Shown: positions 39,970 through 60,481, numbered from the stretch's first letter. The stretch: DNA of 64,000 nt from Eledone cirrhosa (GCA_964016885.1 OZ024745.1:87544001-87608000); one strand, 5' to 3'. Translations and numbers: made by a program. Notes: generated by a model not told the origin, from the sequence alone.

Positions 39970-40390
39970 ATAAAGAATTAGTATATCTACCAACATAGGT
40001 ATACAGATGTATACCCATGCTAGCAAATATATATGTTATGTCTTAGTAACTTTGTGGTTCTATGCAAGGGGATGCAGAACAATTATAACCTCAGTTTTAC
40101 GTGATTGATTCTTTAGAATTTGCCACTGACCAAGTAGGCAGTGAATTTTTTCAGTGTCCTGGAATTTAGTCCCCGCTCGCTTTTTTCCATCCACTGAATT
40201 ATTTTTAAATGAGTTCCTTGTGTCCACGCATTGCCTGGGAACTTAGCTGAGAATAGACTCCCTGATGACGTAAGGATTTCTCTATGGTTGCGTTGCGTAA
40301 CCATATTTATTCCCTTACAGAAACTAATTAGTTGGAGTGAAAATTTTAGTAAGTTAATTTTAAAAATTTTCTTATTTTACGTCTTTCATA
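39970..40390 (+). repeat. H6 repeat unit (related pieces at ~9560-10110)
   Basis: 40100-40215 is the reverse complement of 9555-9672; ttcttattttacgtcttt shared with 9961. Confidence 0.7.
40257..40338 (+). ncRNA. Type I hammerhead ribozyme with long stem II (H6)
   Basis: actcc CTGATGA c gtaagg..tatggttgcg ttg cgtaaccata..ccttac a GAAA ctaattag TT ggagt. Confidence 0.78.
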
Positions 40391-40497
40391 TATATATATA
40401 CATATATATATATATGAATATATATATATATGTGTCCCAATATCTCTGACACCATCAACACCAAAAACACAGAGGTGGCATATCTAAGAACAGACTA

Positions 40498-40553
40498 ACT
40501 GCCTGACGAGATCATAGCCATTCAATGGCTATCAGCGAAATATATATAGCAGT
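40498..40553 (+). ncRNA. Type I hammerhead ribozyme (H4)
   Basis: actgc CTGACGA gatc atagcca ttcaa tggctat cagc GAAA tatata TA gcagt. Confidence 0.83.
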
Positions 40554-40723
40554 AAATAAATGATTATGAGTTCAATCAATTGACTTATGTTTCGTCACTA
40601 TATTTATATATATATATATATATATATATATATATATATATATATATATATATATATATATATATATATATATATATATATAGAATAAGTAAAAGCGAAG
40701 TAGTTTCAGATGTTCAAGTCCTT

Positions 40724-40873
40724 TAATAATAATTGTTTCTATTTTAGGCACAAGGCCAGCAATTATCCAGTACATTACTGGTACTTTATTTTATCGACCC
40801 CGTAAGGATGAAAGGCAAAGTTAACTTCGGCAGGATTGGAACTCAGATCGTAAAGGGACGTAACTATGCTGGA
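40724..40873 (-). mobile_element. 5'-truncated SINE (same family as 12476)
   Basis: Reverse complement of SINE body; empty site visible at ~41838-41855. Confidence 0.88.
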
Positions 40874-40945
40874 TGTGATATATATTTCAATGACGACACT
40901 GGCCACACTGTTCTGTGTGCGAGTGTCGTGACATCATCAGACAGC
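40874..40945 (-). ncRNA. Type I hammerhead ribozyme (H7), stem I clipped by SINE
   Basis: Minus strand: gctgt CTGATGA tgtc acgacact..cacac/gtgtg..agtgtcgt catt GAAA tatata TC aca|SINE. Confidence 0.75.
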
Positions 40946-41768
40946 TTGTTACATAATAAGGTTGTTTACGAGGCAATCCAAATTGAATCGACATGGGTAC
41001 GGATGAAGTTCGTGCTTTTGGGTTTTTCATCCGTTCCCTTGTGAGCACCAATTCACCCCCACCGGTCTGCGCAAGCGCATGTCCGAAGGAAGTTGACCAT
41101 TAGCACCGCAGATTTCAACGAAATTCTCTGTCAGTGGCCCACCTATGCCTTGCCAAAGTTTACTGCTACCCATCGCTACTGTGGCAGTCAGCTGAAAGCC
41201 AGAGGGGATGGGAAGATGTTAGTTTTTAGAGGTCATAATACTTCCTTTCACTAAGCGTTGACAGTAAGACTGACCATCAACTCATAAGGGAACATAAACT
41301 TAATTCTAGGTACTATGGTTTTACATAGTAAGTTAAGAGTGAGAGTTGGGAATAAAAATTAAAATTAAAAGTTAAAATCCTAAATCAAATATCAGAGATT
41401 ATAAATTAAACAATAAAGAATTCAAAAATTCTAAATTCAAAATTTTTTTTTCCCGTGATAATTCGGATTAAGTAAAGATATAGATTGAAGTGAGTAAATA
41501 ATATGGAGAGAGATGTTTAAGTAATATGTTCTGGGAGGGATTCTAGTGTTACCGATATTGAACGGCAGTGCCGTACATCATAACGGAGGGCAAACCACAT
41601 GGTTCAAGGCATTAGTCAATCCGTTACACGGTCATACTTTCCATCACATGGTGGGGGATGAATTGGTACTGACAAGGGAACGGATGAAAAACCCAAAAGC
41701 ACGAACTTCATCCGTACCCATGTCGATTCAATTTGGATTGCCTCGTAAACAACCTTATTATGTAACCA

Positions 41769-41842
41769 GCTGTCTGATGGTGTCACGACACTCGCACACA
41801 GAACAGTGTGGCCAGTGTCGTCATTGAAATAAATATCACAGC
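41769..41842 (+). ncRNA. Type I hammerhead ribozyme (H7), A9G core variant
   Basis: gctgt CTGATGG [stem II] GAAA taaata TC acagc. Confidence 0.7.
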
Positions 41843-42131
41843 ATTATTATTAAAGGAATTGAACATCTGAAACTACTTCGCTTTTACTTATTCGATATTT
41901 ACTCCGTCACTCCTATGTGGAAAAAGTACGTTGAGTGCTTGATTTGAATTGCATCAATGTTTACCCTAATATATATATATATATATATATATATATATAT
42001 ATATATAAAGACAAACATAGAATATTCGAAAATATTCTGTATGTTTATAATAAACATTTTGAAGACCTAATCGCTATAGAATAGAATACGTCACGTATTA
42101 CAATTTGAGATTCTCGATAAAAGCAAGGGAA

Positions 42132-42174
42132 GTAACCTACGCGTTTCATTCTTATTTGAAATCATCAGGATTAC
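42132..42174 (-). ncRNA. Minimal type I hammerhead ribozyme (H3)
   Basis: Minus strand: gtaatc CTGATGA tttc aaataa gaat GAAA cgcg TA ggttac, enclosed by perfect helix ttctcgataaaagca/tgcttttatcgagaa. Confidence 0.87.
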
Positions 42175-57862: not shown

Positions 57863-57954
57863 CCTTCTTCTTCTTCTTCTTCTTCTTCTTCTTCTTCTTC
57901 TTCTTCTTCTTCTTCTTCTTCTTCTTCTTCTTCTTCTTCTTCTTCTTCTTCTTC
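57863..57954. repeat. (TTC)n microsatellite
   Basis: About 30 perfect units. Confidence 0.97.
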
Positions 57955-58796
57955 TCCTTATCCAGCTCTACTACATCTATCCCCCTCTTATCTGTCTATC
58001 TGTATCTTCATTATTAATATTATCTTCATTTTGATGTGATAGTTTGATTTCGTTATTTTGCCGGTTATGCATTTAACTCTATCTTCCTTCTCTCTTTCGT
58101 CTTTCTTTTCTCCTCCCCCTCCTTTCAATCTGTCACCCTTCCTTTATTTCTCTCTATATTTCTCTCTATCTTTATTATTAATATTATTATTGATGTAGTA
58201 ATTTGAATTTATAAATTTACCGTTACGCATATATTTTGTATTTTTTACCAGTTCTCTGACGAAATGATGTATGTTACATGTATTTTAAATTGCGTGTCAC
58301 TAATTTCAGTGTTTAGCAATATTTAGACAACTCTATCATAGAAACAATTGTTAGACTGTAAATAAATTTCATTGTTTGAACCGTTGACCATGTTATTCCT
58401 CACTTTTTCAATATTATATTCATATATATATATATATATATATATATATATGAATATATATATATATATATATATATATATATATATATATATGAATATA
58501 TATATATATATGAATATATATATATATATATATATATATATATATATATATATATATATATATATGAATATATATATATATATATATATGTATATGAATA
58601 TATATATATATATATATATATATGAATATATATATATATATATATATATATATATATATATATATATATATGAATATATATATTTATATATATTTATATA
58701 ATATATATATATATATATATATATATATATATATATATATATATATATATATAGAGAGAGAGAGAGAGAGAGAGAGAGAGAGATGAAAAAATATGT

Positions 58797-58885
58797 CCCC
58801 GACGGCAGAGCTCAAGCCGTTTCGACGGCTATTTCTGGACTGTCCTGAAATAGCCATCGAAACGGCTTGAGCTCTGCCGTCGGGG
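58797..58885. repeat. GC-rich near-perfect hairpin
   Basis: ccccgacggcagagctcaagccgtttcgacggctatttc / gaaatagccatcgaaacggcttgagctctgccgtcgggg. Confidence 0.9.
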
Positions 58886-59488
58886 TCATACCTTTTCCTA
58901 TTTCCCACTCTACTACCCTAAGTATTGAGTACTCTGGTGCGTTATGGTCCATCTGGTTCCTTACCACTATTCCTTTGCTATATATATATATATATATATA
59001 TGCATATATATATATATATATATATATATATATATATATATATATGCATATATATATATATATATATATATATATATATATATATATATATATATATATA
59101 TATATATATATATATATATATGAATATATTTATATGTATTCATATATATATTCATATATATATATAAATGGAATAGAATGAAACGAAATTTCATTTCTCA
59201 CTCTTAGTACGCAGTTACTTAAATGTAAGTATGTACATACATATATGTATACAGACGTACATACATATGTACGTACATACAAATGTAAGTACGTACATAC
59301 ATATATGTATACAGACGTACAGTAGTATGTATATGTATACATACATGCACACATATCTATATGCACATATCAGTTTACCGAACATTTATTATAATGCTCG
59401 GTTTGTTTGTAAACAAAGAAATAGCCCGAATTACGCGGTACAGTGTTTAGGAAACCAAATCACCTTTTTGTTCAACACTGACACAGGA

Positions 59489-59531
59489 ACGATGTACTAG
59501 TTTCAAGCTTATTAGCCATCGTCAGCATCGT
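59489..59531 (-). ncRNA. Minimal type I hammerhead ribozyme (H1)
   Basis: Minus strand: acgatg CTGACGA tggct aata agctt GAAA ctag TA catcgt. Confidence 0.87.
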
Positions 59532-59929
59532 ACACTTTCCTGTCAGATGGTTGAACGTCTGAAAGTATATACTTTTCTTATGCATATTAACGGCTGAGCA
59601 GCCTAATTTGCATAACGAGTGAGTTTAGTCGGCCGGGCGCACCGAAAAGGATAAACGGAATAGAATGAAACGAAATTTCATTTTTCACTCTTAGTACGGC
59701 AGTTACGGAAATGTAAGTATGTATATATGTGTACGTACATTCATATATGTATATAGACGTACAGTAGTATGTATATATATACATACATGCACACATATAT
59801 ATATGCACGTATCGGTTTACCGAACATTTATTATAATGCTCGGTTTGTTTGTAAACAAACAAACAGCTCGAATTACGCCGTACAGTGTTTAGGCAACCAC
59901 GTCACCTTTTTGTTCAACCTGACACTGGA

Positions 59930-59972
59930 ACGATGTATTACTTTCAAGCTCATTATCTATCATCAGCATCGT
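59930..59972 (-). ncRNA. Minimal type I hammerhead ribozyme (H1), drifted
   Basis: Minus strand: acgatg CTGATGA tagat aatg agctt GAAA gtaa TA catcgt. Confidence 0.75.
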
Positions 59973-60448
59973 GTACCTTCCTGCTAGATGGTTGAACGTC
60001 TGAAAGTATATACTTTCCTTATGCATATTAACGGCTGAGCAGCCTAATTTGCATATCGAATGAGTTTAGTTGGCCGGGCGCACTGAAAACGATAAATGGA
60101 ATAGAATGAAACGACATTTCATTTCTCACTCTTAGTACGGCAGTTAATTAAATGTAAGTATGTATGTATACGTACATACATATGTGTATACAGACGTACA
60201 GTAGTATATATAAATATATATATATATATACATGCAGGGATATATATATGCACGTATCGGTTTACTGAACATTTATTATAATGCTCCGTTTATATATATT
60301 AGAAAGTGAGGTTTTTTTATTATTTTTTTTTTACTGAATGAAAAATAACCGAGGTGTCCTACACGAGTGAAATTATAAAGAAAAAAACATGAAATCGAAA
60401 ATGTAACTAGAGTCTTATTTTTTAAAAATATATATATTTATTTGGTTC

Positions 60449-60481
60449 CTTTACCGGTTTCGCAGTTCTGCTTTTCAAAAG
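60449..60481 (-). ncRNA. Degenerate hammerhead relic (H11)
   Basis: Minus strand: ctt TTGAAAA gcag aa ctgc GAAA ccgg TA aag; two core substitutions. Confidence 0.4.

Follow-up and report, generated by a model that had tools for sequence, protein, structure and literature searches.

Introduction

Double-hammerhead processing of transcripts of the ASBVd viroid and of the newt was reportedly described by Forster et al. in 1988. The motifs dealt with here lie in a 64,000-nucleotide stretch of the 3.0-Gb eukaryotic assembly of Eledone cirrhosa (GCA_964016885.1, OZ024745.1, positions 87544001-87608000), called the window in the following, and they resemble those of the viroid and of the newt in having a helix III that is unstable in the single motif; an extended helix III between two copies and the cutting of multimers only, which belong to the older systems, are predicted for the window. 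The viroid and newt motifs are single lineages, whereas about ten lineages coexist in this one genome, and this prompts the question of specificity: a first-pass annotation of the window had proposed that the palindromes found in helix III, different from family to family, might represent a dimerisation address code restricting activation to tandem or same-family RNA. In our opinion, it is fairly probable that Penelope-like retroelements, together with non-coding relatives of theirs organised as tandem repeats (retrozyme type), carry the sites as type I hammerhead motifs, predicted from their sequence to self-cleave, that these motifs are of the dimer type, and that their palindromes differ through descent rather than through a code; this degree of confidence refers to the three parts of the explanation taken together. 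The feature class itself is ordinary and already known.

According to published descriptions (PMC4209133, PMC7229834, PMC6765202), metazoan type I hammerheads usually have a helix III of 1-2 base pairs (bp) capped by a small palindromic loop and are cleaved as dimers. In the motifs of Penelope elements, positions 15.2-16.2 and loop 3 are palindromic, and such motifs are thought, and in some cases have been shown, to act as dimers in tandem transcripts. Dimer cleavage through a palindromic stem III, which the first-pass annotation had given as known, is already in print for these elements.

The closest described motifs are those of the pseudo-long terminal repeats (pseudo-LTRs) of Penelope-like elements (Cervera and de la Pena 2014, PMC4209133). 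The sites of the window, grouped below into families A to I, share with them the type I topology, a long stem II and an unpaired base beside stem II (families G, D and E), the reduction of helix III to a palindromic word, the existence of many consensus families per genome with compensatory changes, opposite-strand pairs 100-700 bp apart, the U3-A8 variant of the core (reported in that paper for Schistosoma elements), and, for two of the families, a nearby open reading frame (ORF) with reverse transcriptase (RT) plus GIY-YIG domains. They differ in that families F' and D'' have non-palindromic consensus inserts, in that copies are nearly uniform within each family, whereas extreme variability is stressed in that paper, and in that only two families (D'' and H) are tied to a coding element.

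A second comparison concerns the metazoan non-LTR retrozymes and the newt and axolotl satellites (Cervera and de la Pena 2020, PMC7229834; 10.64898/2026.07.22.740005), with which the sequences described here have in common a low content of guanine plus cytosine. HHR_Amex1 has the same helix III, that is, one bp topped by a tetraloop that is palindromic, and HHR_Amex2 the same U.U pair at the base of helix II as family A; moreover, the head-to-head arms of the window fit the proposal that Penelope-like elements mobilise retrozyme repeats. The retrozyme units reported measure 170-400 nucleotides, and those of families G (about 525 nucleotides) and E (about 1.3 kb) are longer. Circular RNA and self-cleavage belong to the known retrozymes, whereas the motifs of the window are known from DNA sequence alone.

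Results

Hammerhead motifs in the window

A simple pattern for the type I core (CTGANGA, 6-30 bases, GAAA, 4-12 bases, T, H) matched the window 53 times, versus a mean of 4.3 after shuffling. The sites were then parsed for stems I and II, with inspection of their context, using a parser that allows for a long stem II or an unpaired base. Twenty-two sites are hammerhead-shaped, 20 of them in 40257-61490 and two in 10384-10967; in a structural scan of the window together with its 200-kb flanks (264 kb), 177 sites were found, and five shuffles gave 0-4. The canonical core (C3U4G5A6N7G8A9 ... G12A13A14 ... A15.1-U16.1 H17) is complete in 18 of the 22 sites, a further one (family I) has the U3/A8 pair variant, and the core is lost in the remaining three, namely 41826+ (CTGATGG), 54149- (C at 16.1) and 47178+ (truncated). 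Two other candidates were discarded: 52494-52530 (+), which has no stem I and was taken as a chance match, and 47032 (-), whose CTGANGA box has one mismatch.

The loops that the first-pass annotation had read between GAAA and TH are all present, each of them at a hammerhead-shaped site. They are the following (positions are those of the G of GAAA, followed by the strand sign):

ctag: 53683-, 54149-, 56207-, 59504-; also 10399- and 10952+, outside the range annotated at first
cgcg: 42147-, 42459-
tatata: 40537+, 40888-, 46855-, 47178+
tgcgca: 47421-, 47624+
ctaattag: 40320+
caattg: 55786+
ccgg: 60461-
deviant loops: gtaa 59945-, taaata 41826+, gaattg 48392+, tatgta 51402-, ggac 61460-

The range annotated at first extended from 40257, where the ctaattag motif starts, to 60482, where the ccgg motif does, and the ggac site (61446-61490) falls just past its end. 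As for the deviant loops, described in the same annotation as mostly one change away from a palindrome, gtaa, taaata and gaattg are decayed copies of palindromic families, each with a further defect (in stem II, in the core and in stem I, respectively); tatgta and ggac are instead the consensus of their own families. Being one change from a palindrome is, in any case, a weak criterion for four-letter words, 7 of 16 random ones qualifying by simple arithmetic.

Grouping by stems and flanks yielded about eleven consensus types, distributed as follows:

10384-10426 (minus strand) and 10925-10967 (plus strand): family A head-to-head pair, CTAG in both
40257..40338, plus strand: family G hammerhead; insert CTAATTAG, stem II of 51 nucleotides, one unpaired base on each side of stem II
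40498..40553, plus strand: family D' hammerhead; insert TATATA, stem II with the same C.C mismatch as family D
40872..40945, minus strand: family E hammerhead, copy 1; insert TATATA, stem I decayed
41769..41842, plus strand: family E hammerhead, copy 2, inverted partner of copy 1; core CTGATGG, insert TAAATA, decayed
41997..42730, minus strand: family C tandem array; 312-nucleotide units, 2.4 copies, 99% alike
42132-42174 and 42444-42486, minus strand: family C hammerheads; insert CGCG in both
46839..46893, minus strand: family D hammerhead; insert TATATA
47178-47194, plus strand: inverted partner of the family D hammerhead, truncated at its 5' end and hence without the CTGANGA box
47402-47468 (minus strand) and 47573-47643 (plus strand): family F head-to-head pair; insert TGCGCA
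48369-48408, plus strand: family H hammerhead in a decayed Penelope-like element; core CTGAGGA, insert GAATTG
51383..51448, minus strand: family F' hammerhead; insert TATGTA, which is the family consensus
53372..54587, minus strand: family B tandem array; 466-nucleotide units, 2.6 copies
53667-53711 and 54133-54177, minus strand: family B hammerheads, the former with CTAG and intact, the latter with CTAG and U16.1 changed to C
55763..55802, plus strand: family H hammerhead; insert CAATTG, very short stem II, stem I weakened at position 1.1
56192..56234, minus strand: family A hammerhead; insert CTAG, U.U pair at the base of stem II
59289..60291, minus strand: family A tandem array; 441-nucleotide units, 2.3 copies, 89% alike
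59489-59531 and 59930-59972, minus strand: hammerheads of the family A array, the former with CTAG, the latter decayed, with GTAA and a stem II mismatch
60448..60482, minus strand: family I hammerhead-like motif; core TTGAAAA (U3/A8), insert CCGG
61446..61490, minus strand: family D'' hammerhead; insert GGAC, non-palindromic

Compensatory changes support both helices I and II. In stem II of family B an A-U pair is exchanged, with compensation, for U-A between the window copies, a neighbouring array and contigs from other organisms, the four stem II variants of family G are all compensated, and stem I of family A covaries (U.G versus A-U); stem I is weakened in both window copies of family H. 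At the gathering threshold Rfam gave no match in the whole window, and in E-value mode the only hammerhead matches were two to Hammerhead_HH9, both on the minus strand, at 53651-53722 (38.9 bits) and 54117-54188 (32 bits), against a threshold of 52; otherwise this mode returned many microsatellite-driven microRNA false matches. Standard models are known to miss variants with a short helix III.

A search with RF02275 across the same genome retrieved a different, abundant HH9-like family and none of the families of the window. The helix III of this HH9-like family is a stable four-pair stem with a triloop (insert CATGTCATG), and the U3/A8 core (TTGANAA) is found in two families, this one and family I, in which the box is TTGAAAA in 11 of 12 loci and thus the family consensus. 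Still other hammerhead families have seven-letter CCNNNGG inserts (loci L036:1910, L067:1338, L075:3105 and L076:8642, and perhaps window positions 11566-11606 on the minus strand); judging from their letters, such inserts can fold as a three-pair stem with a triloop, that is, as a hairpin (monomer) type rather than a palindromic one.

Palindromic words and copy numbers

Ten of the families were counted genome-wide as exact-pattern matches with the loop left free (reversed-pattern controls gave 0 or 1), and their loops were tallied by eye on 100 places listed per family:

Family A: 13,267 copies; CTAG in 89 of 100 listed
Family B: 2,610 copies; CTAG in 95 of 100 listed
Families D and D': 8,618 copies; TATATA in 97 of 100 listed
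Family D'': 8,882 copies; GGAC in 53 and GAAC in 47 of 100 listed
Family E: 925 copies; TATATA in 96 of 100 listed
Family F: 16,840 copies; TGCGCA in 91 of 100 listed
Family F': 11,430 copies; TATGTA in 85, TATATA in 10 and other words in 5 of 100 listed
Family G: 1,501 copies; CTAATTAG in 93 of 100 listed
Family H: 3,688 copies; consensus CAATTG in 85 of 100 listed
Family I: 389 copies; CCGG in 77 of 100 listed

The number of pattern copies thus ranges from 389 to 16,840. Among the listed places of the ten families, the loop variants are single or double changes, and no second perfect palindrome occurs except TATATA in F'. In family D'' the words GGAC and GAAC, both non-palindromic, define two subfamilies of about equal size. 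A copy of family C was looked for in 416 kb of further loci and none was found.

A perfect palindrome is the insert in 9 of the 11 family consensuses, and in the same number of families the inner four letters are self-complementary (binomial P 7e-10 at 1/16 each). The two remaining families depart from this to different degrees: the F' insert, UAUGUA, is self-complementary only through two G.U pairs (8 of 8 pairs, counting wobbles), and that of D'' pairs only at 15.1/16.1 and 15.2/16.2, so that the centre of helix III in a D'' dimer (AGGACU or AGAACU) would be a tandem G.A or A.A. In the literature, a short self-complementary helix III of this kind marks hammerheads for which cutting is predicted only upon pairing of two copies through it.

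It might be argued that each motif works as a monomer, helix III being a small-looped stem, one or two pairs long, that is held by loop 1-loop 2 contacts, in which case palindromy would have no role between copies. Efficient self-cleavage of the single motif is reported for most invertebrate retrozyme hammerheads (PMC7229834), the same genome harbors families with a hairpin-type helix III (CATGTCATG with its triloop, and the CCNNNGG inserts), and D'' (GGAC/GAAC) and F' thrive without a perfect palindrome. However, a hairpin needs only its outer letters to be paired, which does not account for the self-complementarity of the inner four, and CTAG, CGCG or CCGG folded on itself would leave a two-letter loop. 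In addition, axolotl and newt motifs of the same architecture (one bp plus a palindromic tetraloop) need dimers (PMC7229834). Altogether, we regard the monomer explanation as quite unlikely.

Pairing between families and sharing of words

The idea of an address code is that selection shaped the palindromes to let the ribozyme be completed by a tandem neighbour or by same-family RNA only, insulating co-resident families in nested clusters and read-through transcripts. Some observations speak in its favor. The calculated helix III duplexes range from -1.7 to -10.5 kcal/mol for self-pairing and are mostly -1.7 kcal/mol or weaker between families, the exceptions being C with F (-5.4 kcal/mol, out of register) and A or B with G (-2.8 kcal/mol); pairing between different addresses would therefore be weak. 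Moreover, at least 13 minus-strand sites of eight families lie within 21 kb, so that a read-through RNA would mix families, and Penelope-like elements are reported to insert into or beside one another (PMC6765202). In the same calculated duplexes the ctag families can pair with one another, and so can the tatata families (A with B, and D with E and F'), in line with the first-pass annotation, which had foreseen that loops of the same word could cross-activate.

Other observations, however, do not fit a code. Words are shared between families: CTAG is common to A and B, a copy of each lying 2 kb from the other on the same strand (56207-, 54149-), and TATATA is common to D, D', E and the F' minority. 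If words were chosen at random, the probability of at least one shared word would be 0.33 among four 4-mers and 0.09 among four 6-mers; sharing is therefore at or above random expectation, and there is no sign of avoidance. The four G-type stem variants all carry CTAATTAG in spite of their diverged, compensated stems, and eleven F-type variants likewise retain their word while the stems diverge (stem II variants are five with TGCGCA, six with TATGTA and one with TATATA). Since the word is constant while stems I and II diverge, helix III changes slower than the other helices and not faster, whereas a code would have it diverge at least as fast. A perfect palindrome is also dispensable for success, as the copy numbers of F' and D'' indicate. 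Finally, the self-duplexes of A, B, D, E and F' (-2.2 to -4.8 kcal/mol) correspond to an estimated dissociation constant of about 0.4-28 mM; in this range the partner would plausibly have to be tethered, as a neighbour within one tandem transcript, and an address is then not needed.

The address proposal thus stood in one respect, the mostly orthogonal duplexes between families, and fell short in the others, words being shared, conserved across subfamilies and not universally palindromic, and several self-duplexes being too weak to act in trans. A full-text literature search, whose coverage did not extend to Lunse, Weinberg and Breaker 2017, found no published proposal of family-specific helix III addressing. 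As stated, the code is unsupported and in our judgement unlikely, although it is conceivable as a weak, secondary effect; the different palindromes are probably inherited family traits and not a selected address code. A more elaborate form of the idea, in which selection would keep the words mutually non-pairing among nested families, only a homotypic partner would complete the core, mixed read-through RNA would be spared chimeric cuts, and the shared CTAG and TATATA would mark groups exploiting each other's RNA, appears to us improbable.

Host elements and tandem repeats

Two coding elements accompany the hammerheads:

42890..44311, minus strand: ORF of a Penelope-like element, 474 amino acids; RVT_1 20.7 bits (below the cut-off), GIY-YIG 23.6 bits (cut-off 22.6)
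48369..50299, plus strand: decayed Penelope-like element of family H; the hammerhead, then a weak RT ORF (48664-49056), then a GIY-YIG ORF (49583-50299)

The ORF at 42890-44311 (-) matches the GIY-YIG ORF at 49583-50299 (+) in BLASTP (E 8e-06), and a partial second copy of its element, 88% identical in DNA, occupies 61600-62147. Counted from the stop codon at the end of the partial Penelope-like ORF 61695-62183, the D'' hammerhead lies about 205 nucleotides to the 3' side, and D'' belongs to an autonomous, coding Penelope-like element. A location beside an RT plus GIY-YIG ORF was found for two families only, D'' (3' side) and H (5' side); the link to a coding element has been made for these and not for A, B, C, D, E, F, F', G or I. 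The family C array is inserted at about 42742, in the 3' untranslated end of the Penelope-like element, where it takes the place of a segment that, in the sister copy (61.4-62.1 kb), bears the D'' hammerhead.

The second type of carrier is represented by the head-to-tail arrays of the window, with periods of 312 (C), 441 (A) and 466 nucleotides (B), whose non-coding units are some hundreds of bp long and contain a single type I hammerhead each, as in retrozymes. The 466-nucleotide unit also forms long arrays elsewhere in the genome, and families G (about 525 nucleotides) and E (about 1.3 kb) have tandem arrays as well. One array of the B-type repeat begins 9.8 kb to the right of the window and embeds 147 units of 467-nucleotide period in 68 kb (L083:9833 to L090:8062); CTAG was parsed in every unit but one, which has a one-base deletion. 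In this array the variable columns are 1 of 45 in the ribozyme versus 52 of 422 elsewhere (Fisher P 0.045). Contigs from four other organisms contain the 466-nucleotide unit (cf. 53372-53837) and close on themselves after 466 nucleotides, a closure that fits tandem DNA and circles alike; in all four organisms CTAG is unchanged, H17 is C or U and one stem II pair is compensated.

The copies of D, F, F', D'' and H are often arranged as minus/plus head-to-head arms, tens to thousands of bases apart, the junction (minus then plus) frequently lying only tens of bases upstream of the ribozyme. The spacing of H-family pairs is 47-94 nucleotides, and one D pair is 32 nucleotides apart. In two cases in the window, the one near 55740-55802 included, a truncated arm begins inside or just past the CTGANGA box or stem II; the hammerhead of family H at 55763..55802 is adjoined by such a truncated inverted arm, whose GAAA is at 55757 (-). 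According to PMC8557442, Penelope-like elements combine RT and GIY-YIG with tandems that are partial, with neighbouring copies that are inverted and truncated at the 5' end, with a preference for TA microsatellites and with a hammerhead close to the 3' end; the head-to-head arms and flanking TA repeats observed here are in agreement with this anatomy. Animal tandem retrozymes have, in turn, been argued to be non-autonomous derivatives of Penelope-like elements (10.64898/2026.07.22.740005).

The arrangement in arms raises the possibility that the palindromes are DNA- or complementary DNA-level signals, that is, protein-binding, nicking or template-switch sites of Penelope-type integration which merely overlap the ribozyme: copies are very often head-to-head arms 30-400 nucleotides apart, and several words (CTAG, CCGG, CGCG, CAATTG) resemble restriction sites. 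Yet the word lies exactly between A15.1 and U16.1 of the core in every family, whatever its flanks, and the symmetry axis of the inverted arms is upstream of the ribozyme and not at the palindrome. From one family to another the words are also free to differ in length and sequence, in better agreement with base pairing than with recognition by a protein, and family F', with TATGTA, argues in the same direction. We consider this explanation very improbable.

In addition, positions 1-36000 contain several near-duplicate copies of LINE-like elements, whose domains are an apurinic-type endonuclease, RT and zf-RVT; the ORFs 1372-2988 and 19190-20806, each of 539 amino acids, are an example.

Discussion

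The explanation that we favor, dimer-type hammerheads whose words are inherited, might be outlined as follows. Two neighbouring copies in a multimeric transcript would form a double hammerhead with a shared helix III of 6-10 bp; tandem RNA would be cut to unit length and a single unit would stay whole. Any self-complementary word would serve, the partner being a copy of the same sequence, and each lineage likely keeps the one it inherited; since one substitution upsets two pairs at once in a symmetric helix, changes of the word would be rare. If any self-complementary word works and change is slow, then the differences between families would be inherited marks, and the poor cross-pairing a by-product of descent under a self-pairing constraint rather than a selected address system.

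When a word does change, the passage is likely to occur through G.U intermediates such as UAUGUA. A chain of single self-pairing transitions might be drawn from UAUAUA through UAUGUA, UACGUA and UGCGUA to UGCGCA; of this chain, the first two words and the last one occur in the F superfamily. The UAUGUA consensus of F', its UAUAUA minority and the UGCGCA of family F suggest, taken together, a palindrome change through wobble intermediates. Co-folding two copies of each ribozyme yielded trivial strand-swapped hairpins (any hairpin can swap in a homodimer), and this calculation was set aside.

Several points weigh against the explanation just outlined. The cross-family specificity is, in the calculated duplexes, physically real, and selection for it is possible. 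Outside the ribozyme there is a weak alignment of family A with family B (59 bases at 76%, 129 bases at 68%); on this evidence the two may be distantly related and not independent, so that their common CTAG may reflect descent and weighs less against a code. The 11,430 copies of F' and the 8,882 of D'', reached without a perfect palindrome, weaken the need for helix III dimer pairing. The activity of such motifs in vitro is low even as dimers (PMC4209133), and only one of nine Xenopus dimer constructs was cleaved (10.64898/2026.07.22.740005). The sample of families is small (about 11 consensus types), the kinship of D/D'/D''/E and of F/F' being judged from shared stems only and the CGCG consensus of family C resting on two window copies; the places used for the loop tallies were taken from the start of contig C1 (C1 plus C2 for family I), a non-random sample.

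A set of palindromes acting as addresses has its nearest example elsewhere. In the dimerisation initiation site (DIS) loops of retroviruses, such as the subtype variants of HIV-1, a six-letter self-complementary loop drives RNA dimerisation, and differing palindromes reduce the formation of heterodimers between lineages. The DIS, however, is a kissing-loop contact serving genome packaging, and not the completion of a catalytic core.

Concerning the biological meaning of these findings, they add local detail to a described class, about ten hammerhead families with their copy numbers being co-resident in one animal genome. They also indicate that helix III words are clade-level traits changing slower than the other helices, and that two very successful families manage without a perfect palindrome. 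If it were true that pairing specificity controls RNA cutting, this would provide orthogonal, sequence-addressed self-cleaving modules for RNA engineering, and it would explain how many ribozyme-bearing retroelements coexist without interference.

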